Origin: an uncultured bacterium
GTDB taxonomy: Bacteria > Verrucomicrobiota > Verrucomicrobiia > Limisphaerales > J093
Assembly (NCBI GenBank): GCA_963735925.1
Contig: CAVTMT010000009.1
Coordinates: 100,696-164,695, forward strand
Direction of reading: 5' to 3'
Length of the DNA stretch: 64,000 nt
In this document: positions 1-17,944 of the stretch, in pieces
Layout: every line of letters begins with the position of its first letter
How positions within the stretch are numbered: position 1 is the first letter of the stretch
Notes under the pieces: generated by a model
Databases searched by the model: none
Told to the model about the DNA's origin: nothing
What the model saw: the letters and a program-made list of their open reading frames with translations, nothing else
Program-made: the position numbers and the translations under genes

Positions 1-2037
1 CAGATTCAGTTCAAGACCTTCGTGTTCATGCAGGGCGCCGCGATCCACCAGAAGTACAGCAACGTGGACGACAACACCGGCGCGAATCCCGACAACCTGT
101 TCAGCGATCCCCGGTATCCAGGCGCTCCCGACCGCACCGATGTCATGGTGAGCTGGGAGTATCCGGCCGACGGCGCAGGCCGCGTGGCCGCCGACCCGGC
201 GCGAAACTACTTTGACTCGATCCAGGGCGTCTTCATCCCGCCCACGACCGGCAACTACGTGTTCTTCACTGCCGGGGCCGACCGCTGGTGGCTCTACCTG
301 AGCACGGACGAGAATCCGGCGAACAAGGTCCTGATCGCGGCGGAGCCCGGCGGCTGGAGCGACCCGCGCGGCTGGGTGCAGGCGTATTCCGGGAGTCTGG
401 AGCGGCGCCGCTCCGACCTCTCGACTGACGCCGCCAACAACTGGCCCAACGGCAACACCATCACCCTCACCAAGGGCAACCGGTATTACATGGAATCCGT
501 CCACCACGATCCGAGTTGGTGCGGTGCGGATGACTTCGGCGTGACCTACATCATGGCCGGCGACACCGATCCGGTGAACGGCACGGCGCCAACGGTGACC
601 GGCGCGGTGATCGGCACCTACCTGGACCCGAACGGGGCGTCGATCGACATCACGCAGCAGCCGGTGGACACCACGGCGCAGGCGGGCAAAACCGCGGAGT
701 TTACCGTGACTGCAACCGGGATTTCGACTTACGGCAACACCGTGATCTACCAATGGCAGAAGGCGCCGCCGGGCAGCGGCACCTTTACCGACATTCCGGG
801 GGCCACGGCGTCCTCCTACACGACGCCGATCCTGCTGCTCGCTGATTCGGGCACGAAATACCAGGTGATCTGCAGTGTGCTCCCTATCTCCGTACCCAGC
901 GCGGCGGCGACCCTGACCGTGGTGGTGGACAACGTGCCGCCGAAGATTGCCGGGGCGTCGGCCGTCGCGAGCCAGACCGGAAACACCTTCGACGTGGGCG
1001 TGAGCTTCGACGAAGTGGTGGATGCGACCTCGGCCGGCACTCAAGCCAACTACGCCTTGTCCGCCGGCTCCATCACCGGCATCAAGTTCTACGCGGGCTC
1101 TCCCGGCGTGGTCTTGACGGCCTCGGGACTGACGGTCGGGAGCTCCTACACGGTCACCGTGACCGGGGTGAAGGACGTCTCGGGCAACGCCATGCCGGCC
1201 ACGACCAAAGACTTCAAGGTCTCCGCGATGAAGTGGGGCGTCGTGGGTGGCGACGAACTGGCCTTGGGCAACGGCGTCCTGGCGACGGCCGAAAACGGGT
1301 TCGACGTCTATAGCGACGGCATCGGGGAATGGGGCACCTACGACGAAGCGGCGTTCGTGTACGAGCAGGTCACCGGCGACTTCGACAAGGTCGTGCGCGT
1401 GGAGTATCAGGACGCCTCCAGCCAGTGGGCGCGGGCGGGCCTGATCGCTCGCGACGTGACGAACTTCGGCGTTGACCGGACCGCGCAGGACGGTGGGGCG
1501 GCCGGGCGCTATCAGAAGGTGCATGTGAATCCGGTCACCACGGTGATGGGCACGGCCGGCAACAACAGTTGGGAAGGCAACCGGCGCCTGGCGACCGGCG
1601 CCGCGACCACCACGGCCGGTGGCGGGGGCACACCGTTGTATCCCAATGCGTGGTGCCGTCTGAAACGGGCCGGTGACCTCTTCACCATCTTCCGGAGCGA
1701 CGACGGGGCGACCTGGACCCAACTGGGCACGACCACCTTTGACTCACCGATGCCGGCGACATTGTTTGTGGGGCCGGAATACTCTCCGGAGAACGGCAAT
1801 ATCACCGATGTCGGCCTGCAGGGTATGTTTGTCGCCAAGTTCCGTGACTACGGCAATTACAACCCGGTGGTGACCCCCACCATCGGCATGAGTGCGGCAG
1901 GCGTCATCACTTACTCCGGCGTGCTGCAAAGCTCGCCGACCGTCAAGGGCACGTACGCGCCGGTGGCCGGAGCCGTCAGTCCGTACACGGTTCCCAAGAC
2001 CGGTGCGGCCATGTTCTATCGCGCGGCCAGTCAGTAA
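1..2037 (+). CDS. Secreted surface protein, PA14-like plus Ig-like repeats plus jelly-roll-like C-terminal domain (5' end outside window)
   Basis: The frame is open to nt 1. It has a PA14-like segment (GVFIPPTTGNYVFFTAGADRWWLYLS) and Ig-like segments (ITQQPVDTTAQAGKTAEFTVTATG; VDNVPPKIAGASAV...TVTVTGVKDVSGN). An intrinsic terminator follows. Confidence 0.6.
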   Translation, partial: QIQFKTFVFMQGAAIHQKYSNVDDNTGANPDNLFSDPRYPGAPDRTDVMVSWEYPADGAGRVAADPARNYFDSIQGVFIPPTTGNYVFFTAGADRWWLYLSTDENPANKVLIAAEPGGWSDPRGWVQAYSGSLERRRSDLSTDAANNWPNGNTITLTKGNRYYMESVHHDPSWCGADDFGVTYIMAGDTDPVNGTAPTVTGAVIGTYLDPNGASIDITQQPVDTTAQAGKTAEFTVTATGISTYGNTVIYQWQKAPPGSGTFTDIPGATASSYTTPILLLADSGTKYQVICSVLPISVPSAAATLTVVVDNVPPKIAGASAVASQTGNTFDVGVSFDEVVDATSAGTQANYALSAGSITGIKFYAGSPGVVLTASGLTVGSSYTVTVTGVKDVSGNAMPATTKDFKVSAMKWGVVGGDELALGNGVLATAENGFDVYSDGIGEWGTYDEAAFVYEQVTGDFDKVVRVEYQDASSQWARAGLIARDVTNFGVDRTAQDGGAAGRYQKVHVNPVTTVMGTAGNNSWEGNRRLATGAATTTAGGGGTPLYPNAWCRLKRAGDLFTIFRSDDGATWTQLGTTTFDSPMPATLFVGPEYSPENGNITDVGLQGMFVAKFRDYGNYNPVVTPTIGMSAAGVITYSGVLQSSPTVKGTYAPVAGAVSPYTVPKTGAAMFYRAASQ

Positions 2038-2066
2038 GGCTTGCGTGACTTGTCTGAGAGTGTCAC

Positions 2067-2098
2067 AGAGACCGGGGTTCGCCCCGGTCTCTTTTTTT
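2067..2098 (+). terminator. Rho-independent terminator
   Basis: The sequence is agagaccgggg-ttcg-ccccggtctct followed by tttttt, 30 nt after the stop at 2037. Confidence 0.75.
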
Positions 2099-2129
2099 AC
2101 CGGCGGCCAAGCGGGCATCCAGTCACTCG

Positions 2130-4439
2130 GTGAAACGGATTCGACAGGCGGCAGTGACCCCGGTCCCCCCACCAGGGCCGGCGCAGGTTCCGCCTTCCGC
2201 CGGGCCGCCCGCGCTCCCGCCCCGTCGTCGCCGGCTGTTCCGCCTCGTGGCCACCGGGGCCGTGCCGCTGCTGCTTCTAGTTCTGCTGGAAGTCGCCTTG
2301 CGCCTCGCCGGCTCTGGGCACGCCACGTCGTTCTTTCTCCGAACGACCCGCGACGGCCAGGAGTTCCTGGTGGACAACACCTGGTTCGGGCTGCGTTTCT
2401 TTCCTCCGGCGCTCTCCCGCAGCCCGGCGCCGACCTCGCTGCGTCGGCACAAGCCGCCCGGCGTGTATCGGATCTTCCTCTTCGGGGAGTCGGCCGCCTT
2501 GGGCGATCCGCGGCCGGCCTACGGGGCCGGGCGGTACCTCGAGGTCATGTTGCGCGAACGGTTCCCCACGCGGGAGTTCGAGGTGGTTTGTGTCGCGATG
2601 ACCGCCATCAACTCCCACGCCATCCTTCCCATAGCCCGCGAGTGTGCCCGCTACGACGGCGACCTGTGGATCGTCTATGCCGGGAACAACGAAATGGCCG
2701 GTCCCTTTGGCGCGAACACCGTGTTCGGACCACAGGCCCCTCCGCTGTTCGCCGTGCGTGCCTACCTGGCCACGCAACGCCTGCGCATCGGCCAGTTCAT
2801 CGCCAACTGGCGGCACCGGCTCGTGCGGGAGAACGGTCCGCCCGCGGCGTGGGGTGGATTAAAGATGTTCCTCGATCGCCAGTTGCCGCTCGATGATCCC
2901 AACAGGGAACGGGTCTATGACCATTTCCGCCAGAATCTTGCCGACCTGCTCCAGGCGGGGCGCCGGGCGGGCGTGTCCGTTCTCCTCAGCAGCGTCGCGA
3001 GCAACCTGAAGGACTGCGCCCCGTTCGCCTCGACCCCGGCTCCGGCCGCCGGCGGGCCGGACCGGGCGGCTTGGGAAGAACGCGTCCAGAACGGCGAACG
3101 GCTGGCCGCCCAAGGGCGCTGGGCCGAGGCCGCCGCGCAATTTCAGGCGGCCCTCGAGCAAACCCCACGGTTCGCTGAACTCCATTTCCGGCGGGGCCAG
3201 TGCTTGCTGGGCCTGGCGAATGTGGACGCGGCGCGCGGGTGTTTCGAGCAGGCCCGCGACCTCGACACCCTGCCGTTTCGCGCCGACTCAACCATCAACG
3301 CCATCATCGAGGAGACGGCCCGTCGCCAGGCGGGCGAGGGCGTGCTGTACGTGGATGCGGCCGCCGCCCTGGCCCGGGAGAGCAGCGATTCGATCCCTGG
3401 TCAGGATTTGTTCTACGACCAGGTGCATCTGAATCCCGAAGGCAACTATCGCCTCGCCCGCGCTTGGGCCGAAGCGATCGCGCCCCGGTTGGCAGGTCTG
3501 GACACCAACGGGCCAGCCACTACCTGGGCGACGCCGGCGGACTGCGCCCAACGCCTCGGGTTGACCGATTGGAATCGCCAGGCGGCCCTCGAGGAAATGC
3601 TCCGTCGGTTGCTCGACGCGCCGTTCACGAGCCAGTGCAACCACACGAACCAGCTCGAACAACTCCGCGGGCAACTGGCCGATGCCCGTGACCGGCTGCG
3701 ATCCCGGTCGCCGCCAGACCTCCGCGCCGGCTACGAGACGGCGATTCGGGATCGTCCCACCGACCACTGGCTGCATCACAACTACGCCGAGTTCCTCAAG
3801 CACGTGGGGGATTTGGCGCAAGCCACGGTCGAAATGCAACGGGTGCGCGATTTGATGCCCCACCATTACGCGGCCTATCTGCATCTGGGCCAACTGCTCG
3901 CCCGCCAGAAGCGATACGCCGAAGCCCGGCAGTCGTTGACGGAAGCTTTGCGCCGGCGCCCGGACCTGTCCGATGCCTGTCTCGAACTCGGTCAGATCGC
4001 CGCCAGCGAGGGGAGGTTGGAAGCGGCCCTCGCCCAGTTCGAGGCCGCCATCGACCGCCGCCCCGAAAGTCTGGGCGTTTACCTGCGCCGGGCCGACGTC
4101 CTGATGGCGTTGAAGCGGCGCGACGCGGCGCTCGAAAGTCTGCGCGACGCCATCCGGCTCCAGCCCTCGTTTTGGGAGGCCCGTTACCTCCTGGGCATCC
4201 AACTGGCAACCGACGGGAACGTCGCCGACGCGCAGACGGAACTCGCCGAGGTCGTGCGCCTGCGACCCGAACACGTTCTGGCCCGTTTGAACCTGGGCAA
4301 CCTGCTGGCCCGACATGGGCGGTTTGACGAGGCACTGGTCCAGTTTCGCGAAGCCGTGCGCCTGGATCCGTCGAACCCGACGGCACGGGAATCCGTGGCC
4401 ACTCTCGAACAACGACCCGCGGGCGCGGCACCGCCCTGA
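2130..4439 (+). CDS. SGNH/GDSL-like hydrolase domain fused to TPR repeats, membrane-anchored
   Basis: It has a GTG start and an N-terminal TM helix (AVPLLLLVLLEVALRL). SGNH-like blocks are present (YRIFLFGESAALG; DQVHLNPEGNYRLA). The C-terminal ~350 aa are TPR-like repeats. Confidence 0.7.
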   Translation: MKRIRQAAVTPVPPPGPAQVPPSAGPPALPPRRRRLFRLVATGAVPLLLLVLLEVALRLAGSGHATSFFLRTTRDGQEFLVDNTWFGLRFFPPALSRSPAPTSLRRHKPPGVYRIFLFGESAALGDPRPAYGAGRYLEVMLRERFPTREFEVVCVAMTAINSHAILPIARECARYDGDLWIVYAGNNEMAGPFGANTVFGPQAPPLFAVRAYLATQRLRIGQFIANWRHRLVRENGPPAAWGGLKMFLDRQLPLDDPNRERVYDHFRQNLADLLQAGRRAGVSVLLSSVASNLKDCAPFASTPAPAAGGPDRAAWEERVQNGERLAAQGRWAEAAAQFQAALEQTPRFAELHFRRGQCLLGLANVDAARGCFEQARDLDTLPFRADSTINAIIEETARRQAGEGVLYVDAAAALARESSDSIPGQDLFYDQVHLNPEGNYRLARAWAEAIAPRLAGLDTNGPATTWATPADCAQRLGLTDWNRQAALEEMLRRLLDAPFTSQCNHTNQLEQLRGQLADARDRLRSRSPPDLRAGYETAIRDRPTDHWLHHNYAEFLKHVGDLAQATVEMQRVRDLMPHHYAAYLHLGQLLARQKRYAEARQSLTEALRRRPDLSDACLELGQIAASEGRLEAALAQFEAAIDRRPESLGVYLRRADVLMALKRRDAALESLRDAIRLQPSFWEARYLLGIQLATDGNVADAQTELAEVVRLRPEHVLARLNLGNLLARHGRFDEALVQFREAVRLDPSNPTARESVATLEQRPAGAAPP

Positions 4440-4456: not shown

Positions 4457-7400
4457 ATGGTCCTGCTCTCGTACTCCCTGCGATGTGCCGTCCGTGGTCT
4501 GGCGGGATGGATGGTGTTCGCGGCCGCGGCCGCGCCGGCCCGGGACAGAGAAACCGCTGGTGACTGGCGTATCACGCCGCTCGCGGTCGCCTCGGCCGGC
4601 CGGACCGGATTCGCGCTGCTCCCTCCGTCGCGGACCGGGATTACCTTCACCAACGTGCTGCCCGAGTCGCGCTTCGTCACCAACCAGGTGTTGCCCAACG
4701 GTTCGGGCGTCGCGGCGGGCGACGTGGATGGCGACGGCCGGTGCGATCTTTTCTTCGGCGGGCTGGGCGGCGGGAGCCGGCTCTACCGGAACCTCGGCGA
4801 CTGGCGTTTCGAGGACCTCACGGCGACCGCGGGGGTGGCCTGTCCCTCGCTCGATGCCACGGGCGCGGCGTTCGCGGATTTGGATGGCGATGGCGACCTC
4901 GATCTGCTGATCAACTCGATCGGAGGCGGAACCCACCTCTTCTTCAACGACGGCCGCGGCCACTTCACGCCGGAGACGGCCGTGCTGAACCCGGGGCGCG
5001 CCGGCACTTCGCTGGCCCTGGCTGATGCCGACGGGGATGGCGACCTGGATTTGTATGTGGCCAATTACCGGACCTCGACCTTGATGGATGCGCCCGGGAC
5101 GCGCTTCACAATCAAGGTGGCCGATGGTCGCCCGTTTGTGGCGACCATCAATGGCCGGCCGCCGACGGATCCGGAGTGGACCAACCGGTTCCGGTTCCAG
5201 TTCGGGCTCGGGGCTGGCGGCCAGGGACGATTCTCCCGCGAGGAACTGGGCGAGCCGGACGTGTTCCTGCTCAACGACGGCCACGGTCAATTCACGCCGG
5301 TGCCGTGGACCGGCGGGGCGTTCCGGGATGAGGATGGTCAACCGCTGGCCCAGCCGCTTTTCGATTGGGGGCTGTCGGTGGCGTTCCGCGACTTCAACGG
5401 CGACGGCCGCCCGGATCTCTATGTCTGCAACGATTTCGCCACGCCGGACCGTTTCTGGCTCAACGAGGGGCAGGGCCGGTTCCGGCTCGCTCCCCGCCTC
5501 GCGCTTCGACAAACCAGCCTGGCGTCGATGGCGGTGGACGTGGCGGACCTGGACCGCGATGGCAACGACGATTTCCTGGTGGTGGAGATGCTGAGTCGCG
5601 ATCACCGTCACCGGTTGACCCAGCGAAACGTCGTGCAAGGCGAAACCCCCGCGGGTTCTCGGATCGAAGGGCGCCCCCAGTACCCGCGCAACACCCTGTT
5701 CTGGAACCGGGGCGACGGCACTTACGCCGAGATCGCCCAGTATGCCGGTCTCGAAGCGTCCGAGTGGTCGTGGGGGCCGGTCTTTCTGGATGTCGATCTG
5801 GACGGGTACGAGGATTTGCTGGTTCCGAACGGGTTCGAGCGCGACAACATGAACGCCGATGTCCAGGCCCACATCCGCCAAGCAACGGCAGGCCGGCGGA
5901 TGCTGACGGCGGACGAGCTCCAACTGCGCCGCATGTTTCCCCGCCTCAACACGGCGAATCTGGCCTTTCGCAACGGGGGCGCGCTGAAGTTTGCGGAGTG
6001 CAGCCGGGAATGGGGCTTCGATCAAGCCACCATTTCCCAGGGGCCGTGCCTCGCGGATCTCGACAACGACGGCGACCCGGACGTGATCGTGAACAACCTG
6101 AACAGCAGCGCCGGCATTTACCGCAACGACAGCTCCGCGCCCCGCGTGGCGGTGCGCCTGCGCGGCCAACCGCCCAACACCAGGGGCGTCGGCGCGCGGA
6201 TCACCGTGGCGGGCGGTCCGGTTTCGCAGAGCCAGCAGATCGTTTGTGGCGGGCGCTACTGCTCCAGCGACCAGGCCCAGCGCACCTTCGCTGCGGGCTC
6301 CGCCGCGTCGCTTGAAGTGCGCGTGCGTTGGCGGAGCGGACGCGAAACCGTCGTCTCGAACGCCCCGCCCGATTCCCTCGTTGAAGTGTTCGAGCCGGCC
6401 GGCCCCATCCCAGCCGCGGCGGCGAGTGATTCCAATTCGGCGGCGGTCGTGACGGCCTCCGGCCTCCGTTTCACGGACGTGAGCGAGGCCATCCGCCACG
6501 TTCATCAAGATGCGCCGTTCGACGATTTCGAGCGCCAGCCGCTGCTGTCGCGCAAGCTCAGTCAACTGGGCCCCGGCGTGGCCTGGTGGGATCTGGACGG
6601 CGACGGACGCGAAGACCTGGTGATAGGCAGCGGTCGCGGCGGGAAGCTGGCCTGGTTCCGCAACCTGGGCGCGGGACGCTTCGAGCGCGGCAACGTCCCG
6701 GCGTGGGACGCGCCGCTCGAGCGCGACGCGGCGGGTTTTGCGGGCGTGGCGCCCGGTGCCTTGCTGGTGGCGTTGGCCAACTACGAGGACGGCGCGACGA
6801 ACGGCCCCGGTGTGCTGACGTTGGGCCCGGCCGCGGCCACCCCGGCGCTGCCGCTGGCGGGACCCAGTTTCGGACCGCTCGCGGTGGCCGATTACGATGG
6901 CGACGGCAGCCTGGACTTGTTTGTGGGCGCACGCGCGGTGAGTGGGCGCTATCCGGCGGCGGGGGCGTCGCAACTTTACCGGTGGCGAAACGGCGCGCTT
7001 GTGCCCGACGCAGAGAACACCCGGGCGCTGCCCGAAGCCCTGGTCAGCAGCGCCCTTTGGACGGACCTCACCGGCGATGGCTGGCCCGAACTGGTACTCG
7101 CCTGCGACTGGGGCGGGATCATCCTGCTGCGAAACGAACACGGCCGGCTCGTGCCTTGGGAGGCACCGCTCACCTGGCCGGAAAGCGCGCCAGCCCATGA
7201 CGGCCGGGACACGATCGGCAGGTTGACGGGGTGGTGGAACGGCGTCGCGGCGGGCGATTTCGACAACGATGGCCGGCTCGATTTCGTGGCGGCGAACTGG
7301 GGCGAGAACTCGCGCTACGAGCATTCGCGGCCCGCGCCGTTGCGCCTCTATTTCGGCGATTTCAACGAGGACGGCGGGGTCGCGGTGATCGCGGCCCACC

Positions 7401-12936: not shown

Positions 12937-14331
12937 TCAGACAGCGCCTTCCAAGTCGGGCGAGCCGGTCGTTGGCATGGCCGGCCCCGGGGCGGCAACC
13001 TCGCTCAACACATAGCGGAGTTTGCCGCCGCGCGGCGGGATTTCCGGCACGGACATGACGGTGACCGGAACTTCCTGTCCGCCCTTGTCGGCCAGATTGG
13101 ACCGAACCCGGGCCAGCGTCTCCTCGAGTCGGGGCCAGGCGGGGTTCGGGACGACGCGAATTTCGATGGAATGGTCCTTCCGCTGGTACACCTGGAATTG
13201 CCGCACCGCGTCCGGGCAATCGTCGAACAGGGTGGTCAGGTAGTCGCCGGCGATGCACCGACCGCTCGGCAGCCGCAAAAGGTCGGAAACGCGCCCGCGG
13301 ATTTTGTCCATCAGCGGCAGCGTACGTCCGCACGGACACTGACCAGGCCGGGCGCGCCCCTGGTCGCCGTTCAAATAGCGAATGATGGGAAACAGCCGGT
13401 TGTGCAGGTCCGTCAGCGCGATGTCGCCATAGGCTCCGTCGGGCACCGGCCGGTGATCCGGGCCAAGAAACTCGATCCGCCGGCTGTCATGAAACCGGTG
13501 CAGGCCCTCGCGGGCCGGGCATTGCGCGGCCAGGTAATAGACTTCGCAGCAGCCGTACTGGTCGAAGACCGGCGCGCCAAAGGCGCGTTGAATGCGCCGC
13601 TCCTGCACGGCCGTGGTCGGCGAGGACGTCAGCCAGATGGCCTGCGGCGCGTGGACCGTGAGCCGACCTTCCAGGACGTACGCTGCCAGGTGATCCACCG
13701 CGCCGACATAACCGTGCAGGAGCGGCGGCCGGACGCGGTTGAAGCGCGCCAGGAATCGATCCATCGCGCCAGCATCCAGGTGGGTGGCGTCCATAAACAC
13801 GCGCCGGACCGGCCAGTCAATGGCGCGGGAAACCAGCCGGTGTTTCCAGTTGTCCGGCTCACGGTACACGGTGGCGTAATCGGTTCCCGGCGGGAGGTTC
13901 CACCAGCTCTCCATCTGCCAGAGCATGGCGGCGCGCGGCACGTTGCGCTGATGGTACACCTTGGCCGGTCGCCCCGTGCTGCCGCCCGTCGTGACGAGAT
14001 TCAGGTCCCGCGGACGCGCCTCGACGGAGACGAGGTCCTGGAAATGGTCGTGCAGGTCCTGTCGGGTCAGCACCGGCACGGCGGCGAAGTCGCCCGGCAG
14101 GCGGAGGTCGTCGGGGCGCAGACCGGCTTCGTCGAAGCGACGGCGATAATACCGCGTTTTCCGATAGGCGTAATCGAGCAACCCTCGCAGGCGACTCCAA
14201 TGCAGCGCCTCGAGCTCGTCCGCGGAAAGCCGTTCGTTCCGCAACGCGAGGCGAAACGCCGCCGCCGCACCCGGCTTCAGGAGCGAGTACTTGGCGAGAT
14301 AGAGGTTCGATTTGAGTCCGGCGAGGCCCAT
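12937..14331 (-). CDS. Adenylate-forming enzyme, phenylacetate-CoA ligase/CapK/F390-synthetase-like
   Basis: A 464-aa ORF. 'VTTGGSTGRPAKVY' matches the AMP-binding P-loop-like motif of PaaK/CapK-type ligases. Confidence 0.7.
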   Translation of the reverse strand: MGLAGLKSNLYLAKYSLLKPGAAAAFRLALRNERLSADELEALHWSRLRGLLDYAYRKTRYYRRRFDEAGLRPDDLRLPGDFAAVPVLTRQDLHDHFQDLVSVEARPRDLNLVTTGGSTGRPAKVYHQRNVPRAAMLWQMESWWNLPPGTDYATVYREPDNWKHRLVSRAIDWPVRRVFMDATHLDAGAMDRFLARFNRVRPPLLHGYVGAVDHLAAYVLEGRLTVHAPQAIWLTSSPTTAVQERRIQRAFGAPVFDQYGCCEVYYLAAQCPAREGLHRFHDSRRIEFLGPDHRPVPDGAYGDIALTDLHNRLFPIIRYLNGDQGRARPGQCPCGRTLPLMDKIRGRVSDLLRLPSGRCIAGDYLTTLFDDCPDAVRQFQVYQRKDHSIEIRVVPNPAWPRLEETLARVRSNLADKGGQEVPVTVMSVPEIPPRGGKLRYVLSEVAAPGPAMPTTGSPDLEGAV

Positions 14332-14467
14332 GCCGCGAGGAGGCTAAGGCGGGAGCCGGACTGAGGCAATCGACCGTTTGCGTGCGCGTTTGCGTGCCGA
14401 TCTCGCGCGAGCGGGTTCGCTGCGCGGCGGCATTCGATGACGACCCGGAGCGTCGGCAGCCGCCGGC

Positions 14468-15046
14468 TCAATCGTGTCCGCAACCACAGGCCACCCTCAC
14501 CGGCGAGGCGGAGTCCAGTCCGCGCACGAACTCGAGCCGCCAGGTGCCGTCGTCGAGCTGCTGCGTCTGGCTCGTGAAACCCTGGGCGCGCAGCTTGGCG
14601 TAGAGCGGGACCGGCTCGAAGGGCACGAGCAGCACGAGGGATTGGCCGGGGGCGACGCTCGCGACGGCGGCATCGATGGCTTCGCAAGGCGTCTCCCCGC
14701 GCGCGAAAATGGGGCGCACATCCAGCACGACGGGCGCGGCGGCGCGCGCCGGGAGCGGTTCCGGCTTCGCCATTTTGGCCGCGGGCACGTAACCGGGGTC
14801 GGCGAACCGGCCCTTGGTGATCCGCACCCGCCACGTTTCGGGGCCTTGTTCGAGGTATTCCCACCGAAACGTCCCGCCGTGCTCGCACGCGAATTGGTAG
14901 TACAGCGGCACGGGATCGTGGTCGTTGACCAACACCAGGGCTTCGCCCGCGGCGAGAGAGTTCCAGGTCGCGAAGATCGCCGCGTGCCGGTTTCGGGCCG
15001 GCAGGGCGCGGACATCGATCTCGCATTCGTTTGCGATTCCGTTCAT
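14468..15046 (-). CDS. DUF2249 domain protein (two tandem DUF2249-like halves)
   Basis: The two halves are IDVRALPARNRHAAIFATWNSLAAGEALVLVNDHDPVPLYYQ and LDVRPIFARGETPCEAIDAAVASVAPGQSLVLLVPFEPVPLY. Confidence 0.6.
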   Translation of the reverse strand: MNGIANECEIDVRALPARNRHAAIFATWNSLAAGEALVLVNDHDPVPLYYQFACEHGGTFRWEYLEQGPETWRVRITKGRFADPGYVPAAKMAKPEPLPARAAAPVVLDVRPIFARGETPCEAIDAAVASVAPGQSLVLLVPFEPVPLYAKLRAQGFTSQTQQLDDGTWRLEFVRGLDSASPVRVACGCGHD

Positions 15047-15071
15047 GGAATGAGGTTAGGGCGCTCCGCCG

Positions 15072-15107
15072 GGCCGCGCATTGATGTGCGTCAACCAATG
15101 CGCGGCC
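15072..15107. promoter_or_regulatory. Perfect 12-bp inverted repeat with 12-nt spacer between ilvB stop and DUF2249 start
   Basis: The sequence is ggccgcgcattg-atgtgcgtcaac-caatgcgcggcc, flanked by direct copies of gcgctccgccgg. No U-tract follows on either strand. Confidence 0.4.
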
Positions 15108-15148
15108 GCGAGGCGAGCTGCGCTCCGCCGGTCGGCCGGGCCGGTTCG

Positions 15149-16972
15149 TTACTGCCAGATCATCTCGTTGACCGTCTTCCCGGCGGGGATGAAGGGCAGC
15201 ACGTGCTCGGTGTAGGGCGTGATCACGTCCAGGACGTACGGCTGATCGGAATCCAGCATCCGCTGGATGGCGGCGCGCAGGTCGCGGCGGTACATCACCC
15301 GCTCGCACGGGACGTTGAACGCCTTGGCGATCGCCACGAAGTCCGGATAGACCTGCTGACGCAGGTTGGGATCGCCCAGGTAGGTGTGGCCACGGTTGCC
15401 CTGGTAGAAGCGGTCCTCCCATTGCATCACCATGCCGAGGTGCTGGTTGTTCAGGATCATCGCCTTGGCGGCGATACCATCGATGTGCGCCATCGCCAGT
15501 TCCTGCACGTTCATCAGGAACGACCCGTCACCGTCGATGTCGATGACCTGCCGGTCCGGTCGGGCCACCTTGGCGCCCAACGCGGCCGGGTAGCCGAAAC
15601 CCATCGAGCCCAGCCCGGCACTGGTCACGAACTGGCGCGGCTCGTCGAACTGGTAGAACTGCCCCGCCCACATCTGGTGCTGACCCACGCCGGTGGTGAT
15701 GATGGCCTCGCCTTTCGTCAACTCGTACAGCGTGGCGATGGCCTCCTGCGGGAGCACCACCTGGCTGGCGTCGCCGCCCATGTGATCGCGCACGTGCTGG
15801 GACTTGAGCACTTCCTCGGTCAGGCGCCAGTTGAGCGGTGCCTTGGCCTTCAGTTCGGCGACGCGCTGTTGCCAGGCGGTGAATCGCTTCGCGACGGGCC
15901 GGTCGGCCAGGATGGCGTTCAGGCGGCCGAGCGCGTAGCGAATGTCGCTCACGATGGGCAGGTGGACGGACCGGTTCTTGTTGAGCTCCGAAGGGTCGAT
16001 GTCCACGTGCACGATGGTTCCGTGCTCGCAGAACTTGTCCACCTTGCCGGTGACGCGGTCGTCGAAGCGCACCCCGAAGGCCAGCAACAAATCGGCTTCC
16101 GCCACCGCCCAGTTCGCGTAGGCACTGCCGTGCATGCCCAGCCACTTGAGCGACAGCGGGTGCGTTTCCGGGAACGCGCCGCAGCCCATGATGGTGGTGG
16201 TCACCGGAATGCCGGTCGCATCCGCGAACTTCCGCAATTCCGCCGCGGACCCGCTGCTGAGGATGCCTCCGCCGCAGTACAGCACCGGACGCTCCGCGCG
16301 GTCGATCAAGGCGAGGATCTCGCCCAAGGCCGCGTCGTCCGCGCGCCGGTCCGGTTGGTAACCGCGCAGCGTGACTTCGGTCGGAAACACCGGTTGCGCG
16401 CGCTGCTGCTGCACGTTCTTGGGCACGTCGATCAACACCGGACCGGGCCGCCCCGATTGGGCGATGTGGAAGGCTTCCTTGACCACGCGCGGGATCGTGT
16501 GGATGTCCGTGATCAGATAACTGTGTTTCACGACCGGCAGGGTCATCCCGAAGATGTCCGTTTCCTGAAAGGCCCCTTTGCCGATCATGGCCTGCGGCAC
16601 CTGGCCCGTGATGGCGACCAGCGGGACTGAATCCATAAAGGCGTCGGCGATGCCGGTCACCAGGTTCGTGGCGCCGGGCCCGCTGGTGGCCATACAGACA
16701 CCGGCCTTGCCCGAGACGCGGGCGTAGCCTTCGGCGGCAAACACGCCGCCCTGCTCGTGGCGGGGCAGGTAGGTGCGGATCTGGCGCGAGCGGGTCAGGG
16801 CCTGGTGGATTTCCATGCTGGCGCCGCCGGGGTAGGCGAAAATGGCTTCGACGCCTTCGCGTTCGAGGCATTTCACCAGGATCTCGCTGCCCATCGGGGC
16901 GGCGCCGGCTTCGCCCACGGCGGCGGTCGCCGGCGGCGTGGTCTGGGGGTTCGCTTTCGTCGTTTTGCTCAT
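15149..16972 (-). CDS. ilvB: Acetolactate synthase (acetohydroxyacid synthase) large subunit
   Basis: It carries [47 protein letters not shown] and the ThDP motif [18 protein letters not shown]...[15 protein letters not shown]. The ATG at 16972 (MSKTTK) is preferred over the track start at 17020. Confidence 0.9.
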
Positions 16973-17004
16973 GGGTGCTTTTGCGGTTCGGGCCGGCCGC
17001 CGGG

Positions 17005-17042
17005 GTAACAAAAAACCCACGACTGGCGACCAGCCGTGGGTT
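17005..17042 (-). terminator. Intrinsic terminator/attenuator hairpin immediately upstream of ilvB
   Basis: The minus-strand RNA is AACCCACGGCUGG-UCG-CCAGUCGUGGGUU (13-bp stem with one G.U) followed by UUUUGUU. It lies 41 nt before the ilvB ATG. Confidence 0.6.
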
Positions 17043-17060
17043 CTTTGTTGAAATCTTGAG

Positions 17061-17141
17061 TCACGCCCAACAAAGCCCAGCGGCGACGCCGTGGCCTACG
17101 ACGACTACCAGCAGCAGGGCTTGTCGGACATTCACCGTCAT
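17061..17141 (-). CDS. Candidate ilvB leader peptide (26 aa, Leu/Val-rich)
   Basis: An ATG..TGA ORF encodes [26 protein letters not shown], with LLL followed by VVVV. It ends 18 nt before the terminator hairpin. Confidence 0.5.
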
Positions 17142-17674
17142 TTTGCGGAGCACAGCGTTAGCGGGTCCGGCACGGAGGTCAAGCCCACAATTGCGCCGGC
17201 TTCCGATCGCGTCACGATGGGCCAGGATGAAAGCCGAGGACGGCTGGACGACGGTGGTGCCTCCAATGGCATCGCATTGCCCAGACCTGCGCCTCGACGT
17301 CCAAACCCGACGCAATGAAAACCGATGCCCTGAGGGAATTGACGATGAGTACACCCGTATTCAGGAACCTCGCGAATTCGTGGGTTGCGGCTGAATAGGG
17401 GTCAGTTCTTGATATTGGTAATTGAGACTGAATGGGGGCACCCGCAATGGTCGGCAGGTTGAGGGTTGAACCTGTCGGCGAAGCGCCACGCTGCGCACCG
17501 CGTACATCGCGATAGCAAGTCATGTCAAGAGTATCCATTATCAAGAACCGACCCCTTTTCGGCGGCCATTCGGCGGCCAACAGGGCATCCCGACTTGGGC
17601 CGCGCTCCAAGGGTTTCTGCGCCAGCAATCGCGCTGAGCTGCTTCACCCAGGGAATTGGCGACGTGGAGGCAGG

Positions 17675-17905
17675 TCACAAGGTGTCGGCACTTTCGGAAT
17701 CAACGGGAACGAAATAGGTTTTCTCCGGGCAGGCGAGCAACCAGTCCACCAATCCTTCGTTGGCCGGCGGCGTGCGGCGCACCAGCCGGTACTCGCCCCG
17801 GTCCAGCCGCTCGATCTCGAATTCCTGGCCTGCCTCGAAGGCGTCCTGCAGATGGATTTCCACCGGCAGCACGATACGACCCTCCCTAGCAACGCTCGTT
17901 TTCAT
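17675..17905 (-). CDS. AbrB/MazE/SpoVT-family antitoxin (VapB-like)
   Basis: It has the SpoVT-AbrB N-terminus MKTSVAREGRIVLPVEIHLQDAFEAGQEFEIERLDRGEYRLVR and a tail NEGLVDWLLACPEK typical of this antitoxin family. The track start at 17914 is a TTG. Confidence 0.75.
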   Translation of the reverse strand: MKTSVAREGRIVLPVEIHLQDAFEAGQEFEIERLDRGEYRLVRRTPPANEGLVDWLLACPEKTYFVPVDSESADTL

Positions 17906-17944
17906 GATTGGCAAGTCACCCGCCTTGACGTAGTTCCTCGGTGG

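Follow-up and report, generated by a model that had tools for sequence, protein, structure and literature searches.

Why is ilvB, in an uncultured member of the Limisphaerales, preceded by a short open reading frame (ORF) with a run of leucine and valine codons and by a GC-rich hairpin ending in a run of uridines? The locus lies in a 64-kb stretch of contig CAVTMT010000009.1 (hereafter the window) belonging to this order, which falls within the Verrucomicrobiia, the Verrucomicrobiota and the Planctomycetes-Verrucomicrobia-Chlamydiae (PVC) group, and every feature of the ilvB leader is on the minus strand. We consider it highly likely, from the comparison and folding of related leaders, that this region is a ribosome-mediated transcription attenuator, which would tune ilvB expression to the availability of charged tRNA-Val and, in second place, of charged tRNA-Leu.

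The gene that would be regulated, ilvB (15149..16972), encodes the large subunit of a biosynthetic acetolactate synthase: its product scores 694.7 bits against the TIGR00118 equivalog (cutoff 538.35) and contains the N, M and C domains of Pfam TPP_enzyme. The ORF in front of it (17061..17141) runs for 26 codons from an ATG at 17141 to a UGA at 17063..17061 and carries, exactly as the first-pass annotation of this DNA had described, three leucine codons followed by four valine codons. Leu9-11 are three CUG codons (17117..17109) and Val12-15 are GUA GUC GUC GUA (17108..17097), so that the putative regulatory codons (17097..17117) specify end products of the pathway, as an LLLVVVV run within a 26-codon ORF located 88 nt upstream of ilvB. 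A TTGACC hexamer (17177..17182) and, after a 16-nt spacer, a TAACGC hexamer (17155..17160) precede the ORF as candidate -35 and -10 elements.

Downstream of the ORF lies a predicted intrinsic terminator. The 13-bp stem that had been noticed at first (AACCCACGGCUGG / CCAGUCGUGGGUU, loop UCG, 17042..17014) is present with its U-run, 18 nt after the leader stop codon and with 41 nt between the stem end and the ilvB ATG at 16972, but the hairpin had been undersized: an upstream A-rich stretch pairs with the U-run and extends the stem to 20 bp (17007..17049). Its core consists of CCCACGGCUGG (17040..17030), the UCG loop and CCAGUCGUGGG (17026..17016), followed by UUUUUUGUU with the U-tract UUUUUU at 17015..17010. 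The folding energy is -31.7 kcal/mol (z = -6.5), a stability reached by 0 of 200 shuffled sequences; the whole window leader folds with z = -4.3. A scan for consensus promoters and terminators missed both the ilvB promoter and the 20-bp hairpin, and folding and a terminator scan of our own were used instead.

Two further helices compete with this one. The minimum-energy fold (-35.9 kcal/mol) contains a hairpin at 17063..17131 between regions 1 and 2, a putative anti-antiterminator and possible pause hairpin, whose 5' arm is formed by codons 4-10 and whose 3' arm by codons 20-26, so that it encloses the leucine and valine codons. Its main pairing is that of CCGACAAGCCC with GGGCUUUGUUGG; the pairing of GCCCUGCUGC with GCCGCUGGGC previously seen by eye is real but forms merely the inner part of this longer hairpin. 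Region 2, GCCGCUGGGCUUUGUUGGGCGU (17063..17084), can have one of two partners, region 1 or region 3, AUUUCAACAAAGAACCCACGGC (17033..17054), the 3' strand of the antiterminator. When region 1 is left out of the fold and region 4 is still to be transcribed, the antiterminator (17084..17063 / 17054..17033) forms 20 pairs, 19 of them between regions 2 and 3, at -22.1 kcal/mol; the suggested pairing of GGGCUUUGUUG with CAACAAAG(AA)CCC is thus borne out and belongs to this longer helix. Of the 20 nt in the terminator 5' arm, 17 are shared with region 3, which makes antiterminator and terminator mutually exclusive. The logic of these pairings is visible in short motifs. Region 1 contains CGACAAG (Arg-Gln-Val codons), region 2 contains CUUGUCG (Ala-Cys-Arg codons) and CGACAAG recurs as region 3 immediately 5' of the terminator stem, while the upstream half of region 2, GCCGUnGG (Ala-Val-Gly codons), complements the terminator 5' arm CCCACGGC.

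Conservation and covariation in related genomes

The IlvB protein was used to scan one genome per species and the best 80 loci were taken, with IlvB identities from 94% down to 68%; nearly all are Verrucomicrobiota metagenome-assembled genomes (MAGs) labelled Limisphaerales, Pedosphaera, subdivision 3 or Verrucomicrobiia. From an alignment of 71 sequences (A1) we built a covariance model (R1) and searched it against 81 sources (634 kb, both strands), with seven matching loci lying outside the model-building set. A single strong match (42-152 bits) was found in the window (16996..17158, minus strand, 117 bits) and in 77 of the 80 loci, in every case on the ilvB strand and directly upstream of ilvB. 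All other matches scored at most 29 bits and were nearly all the reverse complement of the palindromic hairpin, with a few scattered matches below 16 bits elsewhere. A search for short ORFs with isoleucine, leucine or valine runs also recovered the leader in most loci, and a relaxed search in most of the rest. It is this conservation, and not the single sequence taken alone, that excludes a chance origin of the arrangement.

Among the three loci lacking a match, one has merely 52 nt of upstream sequence, one has diverged and one has lost everything 5' of the terminator 3' arm. In this last locus (L059, ~2930..3000) the attenuator is gone save for the terminator 3' arm ACGGTCGCGGGCT and coding-like DNA abuts it upstream, as if the leader had been cut away by an insertion or rearrangement; a second locus (L064, ~2820..3000) has the same ilvB-proximal sequence and keeps a diverged leader with an Ile-Ile-Val run. 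Five loci bear unexpected labels (L016, L029, L052, L067 and L080: Methylomirabilota, Omnitrophota, Proteobacteria, Klebsiella pneumoniae and Bifidobacterium). In each, the same leader precedes an ilvB of Limisphaerales type (69-74% identity), and the labels are probably binning or naming errors.

The short ORF occurs at the same place in all 71 aligned relatives, with 22-33 codons (median 25), an ATG (63) or GTG (8) start codon and a stop codon 85-92 nt before ilvB. The comparison with relatives proposed in the first-pass annotation thus came out in its favour, with a Val-run ORF in the 71 aligned sequences and the element in 77 of 80 loci. The consensus peptide is approximately M-L-x-N-I-R-Q-V-x-L-L-V-V-V-V-G-D-A-V-G-A-C-R; the pattern RQV...VVVVGDAVGACR is kept, and length and N-terminus vary freely. 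Leaders contain on average 6.5 valine, 2.55 leucine and 0.86 isoleucine residues, and the longest valine run is at least three in 66 of the 71. In the four codons of the run, positions 1 and 2 are near-invariant (0-0.5 bits of entropy, up to 1.0 bit for the first codon) and position 3 is variable (0.8-1.7 bits). The distance between regions 1 and 2 ranges from 43 to 67 nt in steps of three, a single phase being observed in 71 of 71 sequences; the distance between regions 2 and 3, past the stop codon, displays no such periodicity (phases split 44/14/13). The short ORF appears on these grounds to be under coding constraint, which we take as a proxy for its translation.

Valine would be the dominant conserved signal, with leucine secondary and isoleucine minor, which fits the position of the enzyme at the head of the Val/Leu branch and of the isoleucine pathway. 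The earlier proposal of a joint Leu/Val attenuator is thus upheld as regards the attenuator but not as regards an equal part for the two amino acids. Valine codons in the leaders are also unusual in kind: GUA accounts for 26.5% of them, as compared to 2.4% in the ilvB genes of the relatives (an approximately 11-fold enrichment) and 6% in the genes of the window. Attenuators are known to use rare codons for regulation. In the ilvB1 leader of Mycobacterium tuberculosis, GUA is designated a regulatory codon (PMC13236596). RNA pairing may contribute to the preference.

The candidate promoter is conserved together with the ORF. The motif cTTGACc is found in 70 of 71 sequences, 34-46 nt (mode 36) upstream of the leader ORF's start codon, and is followed in 69 of these 70 by TAnnnT after 16-19 nt (16-18 nt in all but one). 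Both hexamers and the 16-nt spacer had been recognized correctly in the window, but the promoter is more than the weak sigma70-like one described there, its -35 element being near-invariant. With a promoter in front of the leader, leader and ilvB would share a transcript, and the position of the motif directly upstream of the leader ATG contradicts the possibility, raised beforehand, that transcription initiates downstream of the hairpin. The distance from the end of the -10 element to the start codon is 6-9 nt (mode 7) in most relatives, 9-13 nt in the window and its closest relatives and 13 nt in the window itself. With a gap of 6-9 nt, the transcription start is expected to coincide with the A of the ATG or to lie beside it, and the leader mRNA is thus predicted to be leaderless in most relatives. 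The start position that we infer from the same promoter geometry in the window implies a 5' untranslated region of about 5-6 nt, devoid of a Shine-Dalgarno sequence.

The three exclusive helices are likewise conserved, with compensatory changes, as anticipated by the 1:2 / 2:3 / 3:4 scheme first put forward for this leader. RNAalifold applied to a MAFFT alignment recovered the terminator alone owing to the many gaps in the 5' half of that alignment, and the named structures were instead tested by pair counts. The 2:3 helix is paired in 83.5% of cells (slid controls, 31-53%) with 35 both-side changes, a result reached by 0 of 500 shuffles. For the outer helix of 1:2 (CGACAAG:CUUGUCG) the value is 81.5% (slid controls, 39-44%), with a covariation score of 0.311 as compared to at most 0.131 in controls and changes on both sides in five of nine pairs. 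The 3:4 helix is paired in 96.6% of cells over the 71 sequences (slid controls, 37-56%) and displays A-U to G-C replacements in four of them. In a group of about eight sequences and a few others, CUUGUCG/CGACAAG is replaced by CUUGUUG/uAACAAG. The clade of the window (the window, L001 and L004, with L002 carrying a partial variant) has CUUUGUUG/CAACAAAG, which corresponds to a paired one-base insertion together with a C-to-U/G-to-A change, and in a small clade with GGUCGGGG/CCCACGACC regions 2 and 3 have changed together while region 4 is almost unchanged, both helices being kept. In region 2, third codon positions within the helix have an entropy of 0.0-0.5 bits and unpaired first and second positions of up to 1.7 bits, which indicates that conservation there tracks RNA pairing and not the genetic code.

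Folding of each sequence separately gave the same picture. The 1:2 hairpin was obtained in 71 of 71 sequences (median -30.3 kcal/mol), as was 2:3 (median 16 pairs, -22.1 kcal/mol), with z < -2 against shuffled region 2 in 57 of them, and a terminator of at least 10 pairs was found in 69 of 71 (median -24 kcal/mol). In this series the values for the window were -35.9, -22.1 and -31.2 kcal/mol for 1:2, 2:3 and 3:4, respectively.

The leader and ilvB are conserved independently of their neighbours. In the closest relative (L001, IlvB 94% identical), nucleotide homology of 90% extends over window positions 17194..15147 and L001 positions 922..2969, starting 12 nt upstream of the -35 hexamer and stopping at the ilvB stop codon, with unrelated sequence on both flanks. 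Clustering of the flanking ORFs did not reveal any upstream gene common to more than about six loci. The ilvB module thus sits in differing neighbourhoods in close relatives, through rearrangement or some mobility of the unit. The end of the homology at the ilvB stop codon and the unrelated flanks also suggest that ilvB is monocistronic in the window.

Proposed mechanism and rival explanations

The leader has those structural features of a classical attenuator that can be read in a sequence, and from these we infer its response to amino acids. Transcription would start a few nucleotides before the leader ATG, or at the ATG itself in most relatives, and a ribosome would be translating the 26 leader codons before RNA polymerase has finished transcribing the region. 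With valine and leucine plentiful, the ribosome would reach the UGA and cover region 2 (17084..17063), region 3 would then pair with region 4, and transcription would end near 17010..17006, before ilvB. If the leader were not translated, region 1 would pair with region 2 (17131..17063) and the terminator would form again. When Val-tRNA or Leu-tRNA is scarce, the ribosome would stall at codons 9-15 (17117..17097) and break the 1:2 hairpin, with its edge just short of region 2; region 2 would pair with region 3, by which 17 nt of the 20-nt terminator 5' arm would be sequestered, and polymerase would read into ilvB.

The geometry of the leader is compatible with these steps. If the A of the leader ATG is numbered nt 1, the leucine and valine codons fall at nt 25-45, the 1:2 hairpin extends over nt 11-79, the two antiterminator strands are nt 58-79 and 88-109 and the terminator is nt 93-135. 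Judging by this geometry, a ribosome whose A site holds the last valine codon would cover the RNA up to about nt 57 and keep 1:2 open, and a ribosome at the stop codon would cover approximately nt 64-93, so that region 2 would be masked and the terminator's G+C core left free.

Several points weigh against this interpretation. The case has been built from sequence comparison and folding alone. The -10 element of the window (TAACGC) does not have the usual final T, and the Shine-Dalgarno sequence is absent in the window, so that efficient translation of the leader is an assumption. With -22.1 kcal/mol as compared to -31.2 kcal/mol, the antiterminator is less stable than the terminator and would have to win kinetically. 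The 71 sequences are mutually related, and covariation was counted in cells and not as independent events. Finally, a similar-looking ilvB leader in Streptomyces coelicolor is reported to have been unresponsive to substitution of its candidate regulatory codons (cited in PMC1262725), a case which indicates that architecture alone does not prove mechanism.

The same S. coelicolor substitutions, reported as having no effect (cited in PMC1262725), lend weight to the idea that translation of the leader acts on ilvB but that the valine and leucine codons are not sensed, the effect being due to the general translation rate, to coupling or to an action together with Rho, as has been suggested for that S. 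coelicolor leader; the differing leucine and isoleucine contents of the leaders point the same way. However, the valine run is the most strongly conserved feature of the peptide and varies at synonymous sites only, the roughly 11-fold enrichment in GUA is hard to explain unless the speed of valine decoding matters (even if RNA pairing may contribute to it), and the position of the predicted stall fits the start of region 2. We regard this explanation as quite unlikely. An RNA switch operated by a protein, a tRNA or a small ligand (an RNA-binding regulator, a T-box or a riboswitch), with translation of the ORF playing no sensory part, would account for the very high conservation of regions 2-4, including invariant positions in the terminator, since this is also typical of ligand- or protein-binding RNAs. 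Such a switch would not explain why start codon, frame, stop position and valine run are all conserved, no Rfam family matches at threshold, and a conserved unpaired pocket beyond the helices is absent, whereas the chain of 1-2-3-4 pairings, two strands of which are also coding, does explain the conservation; we judge it very unlikely.

The conserved RQV...VVVVGDAVGACR pattern could also denote a functional hydrophobic micro-protein co-transcribed with ilvB, with the hairpin stabilizing or processing the mRNA. This we hold to be extremely unlikely, as in the C-terminal half the paired third positions are invariant whereas those first and second positions that are unpaired vary, the peptide is free to differ in length and at its N-terminus, and a conserved U-tract follows the hairpin. 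The hairpin might lastly be a constitutive terminator or insulator for an upstream transcript, as the first-pass annotation had itself envisaged, with the ilvB promoter downstream of it and the short ORF incidental. A hairpin flanked by an A-tract and a U-tract could indeed act in both directions, and its reverse strand scores weakly with R1. However, the approximately 500 nt upstream display no coding signal, the conserved promoter lies directly upstream of the ORF, insertions and deletions in the leader ORF preserve the frame, and the roughly 35-45 nt that separate the U-run from ilvB are poorly conserved and leave too little room for a conserved promoter. Moreover, upstream genes vary while promoter, ORF and hairpin always accompany ilvB, and this variation, together with a homology bounded by the promoter and the ilvB stop codon, rules out a terminator serving an upstream gene. 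We therefore give hardly any credence to this last explanation, and attenuation by a leader-translating ribosome is retained as the preferred reading.

Neighbourhood of ilvB and other features of the window

Neither ilvN nor ilvC adjoins ilvB in the window, confirming what had been remarked at first, and these genes are not among the main downstream gene clusters of the relatives. The commonest same-strand downstream gene, in 24 of 80 loci, encodes a 3-keto-disaccharide hydrolase-like protein (PF06439; for example L066, ~4893..6023). Such a gene would not be expected next to one for branched-chain amino acids, and it is not present in the window. In the window, ilvB is followed on the same strand by ORFs of about 289 codons (14277..15146) and 464 codons (12937..14331), neither of which has a Pfam match.

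Other ORFs overlapping the leader region were rejected as genes. The 26-codon leader forms the tail of a 97-codon ORF starting with GTG in the same frame, but this longer ORF has no Pfam match, lacks third-position GC (GC3) periodicity and crosses the boundary of homology with the closest relative; its extension beyond the leader carries no coding signal and is not conserved. The plus-strand ORFs 16975..17394 and 17091..17318 share the same three failings, and GC3 periodicity is absent over the whole of 17000..17650. Between the ilvB promoter and a 79-codon ORF (17675..17914, minus strand), which has a strong GC3 signal and no Pfam match, about 470 nt (17200..17675) show no coding periodicity, no Rfam or Pfam match and a G+C content of 0.53-0.55, as compared to a window mean of 0.66. 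A decayed toxin gene considered at 17212..17628, downstream of the 79-residue ORF, was dropped as no family match could be obtained.

Our scan of the 64 kb for canonical hairpins followed by a U-run returned two sites only, the ilvB attenuator and 2069..2099 on the plus strand. The latter is a clean intrinsic terminator (GAGACCGGGG-UUCG-CCCCGGUCUC, then UUUUUUU), whose stem starts 31 nt past the TAA (2035..2037) of a 671-codon ORF (22..2037). The genome does thus seem to use intrinsic terminators at gene ends. Neither the terminator scan nor the R1 search detected another attenuator in the window.

Known attenuators and implications

In Escherichia coli, the ilvBN operon is preceded by ivbL, a leader ORF rich in valine and leucine codons, with 1:2, 2:3 and 3:4 hairpins and an intrinsic terminator before the gene for the acetolactate synthase large subunit. 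The leader described here resembles this textbook system in layout. It differs from it in belonging to another phylum, in standing before an ilvB without ilvN, in having no Rfam match at threshold and in a leader mRNA that is predicted to be leaderless or nearly so, whereas that of E. coli is led by a Shine-Dalgarno sequence. The VVVV(V)G motif, which we take to be shared with ivbL, would be expected from function alone. In the 64 kb, no leader, riboswitch or T-box family of Rfam was matched at its gathering threshold. The best match below threshold was that of His_leader (RF00514), at 29.2 bits for a gathering threshold of 49 and over the full length of the model (17007..17146, minus strand); this family belongs to the same class of cis-regulatory leaders, but the likeness is one of layout only, since the run here is of valine and not histidine codons.

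For Proteobacteria, leader-peptide attenuation is textbook knowledge, and it has been established for Actinobacteria and some Firmicutes. According to a survey of 2010, knowledge of such systems was at that time confined to Proteobacteria and Actinobacteria, to which the survey added Firmicutes (PMC2965389). In the openly readable literature, we found no report connecting Verrucomicrobia with leader peptides or attenuation. The closest architectural match is the ilvBNC operon of Corynebacterium glutamicum, where transcription starts 1 nt away from the initiation codon of the IlvL leader, MTIIRLVVVTARRLP, giving a leaderless mRNA, and where a valine run is combined with an anti-antiterminator, an antiterminator and a terminator; replacement of valine by alanine abolishes the response to valine (PMC11857589). 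That actinobacterial peptide has 15 residues, as opposed to 22-33 here, its sequence is unrelated, and it lies in a leader region of 292 nt before an ilvBNC operon, whereas the region described here spans about 170 nt before ilvB alone. In M. tuberculosis, also one of the Actinobacteria, ilvB1NC is preceded by an upstream ORF rich in branched-chain amino acid codons (LVVI), an intrinsic terminator and an antiterminator, which is masked by a ribosome at the stop codon (PMC13236596). Unlike the present locus, this is an operon with ilvN and ilvC, and it has been studied by 3'-end mapping and reporters, whereas the present account relies on sequence.

We lean slightly towards regarding the window leader as the founding example of an undescribed family of leaderless valine-sensing attenuators, order-wide or wider, in the Verrucomicrobiota. 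About 78 instances, sharing promoter, Val-run ORF and three covarying helices, suffice to seed a new RNA family, and hundreds of MAGs could gain the annotation of a mini-gene and an RNA element before ilvB that gene callers miss. The understanding of attenuation itself would be unchanged. If true, this would be the first evidence of ribosome-mediated attenuation in the PVC group, would imply tight coupling of transcription and translation as well as functional intrinsic terminators in these bacteria, and would reveal a self-contained promoter-leader-ilvB unit that stays intact while its genomic neighbourhood changes. Metabolic control in these largely uncultured hosts would then involve coupled transcription and translation, intrinsic termination and, probably, initiation on leaderless mRNA.

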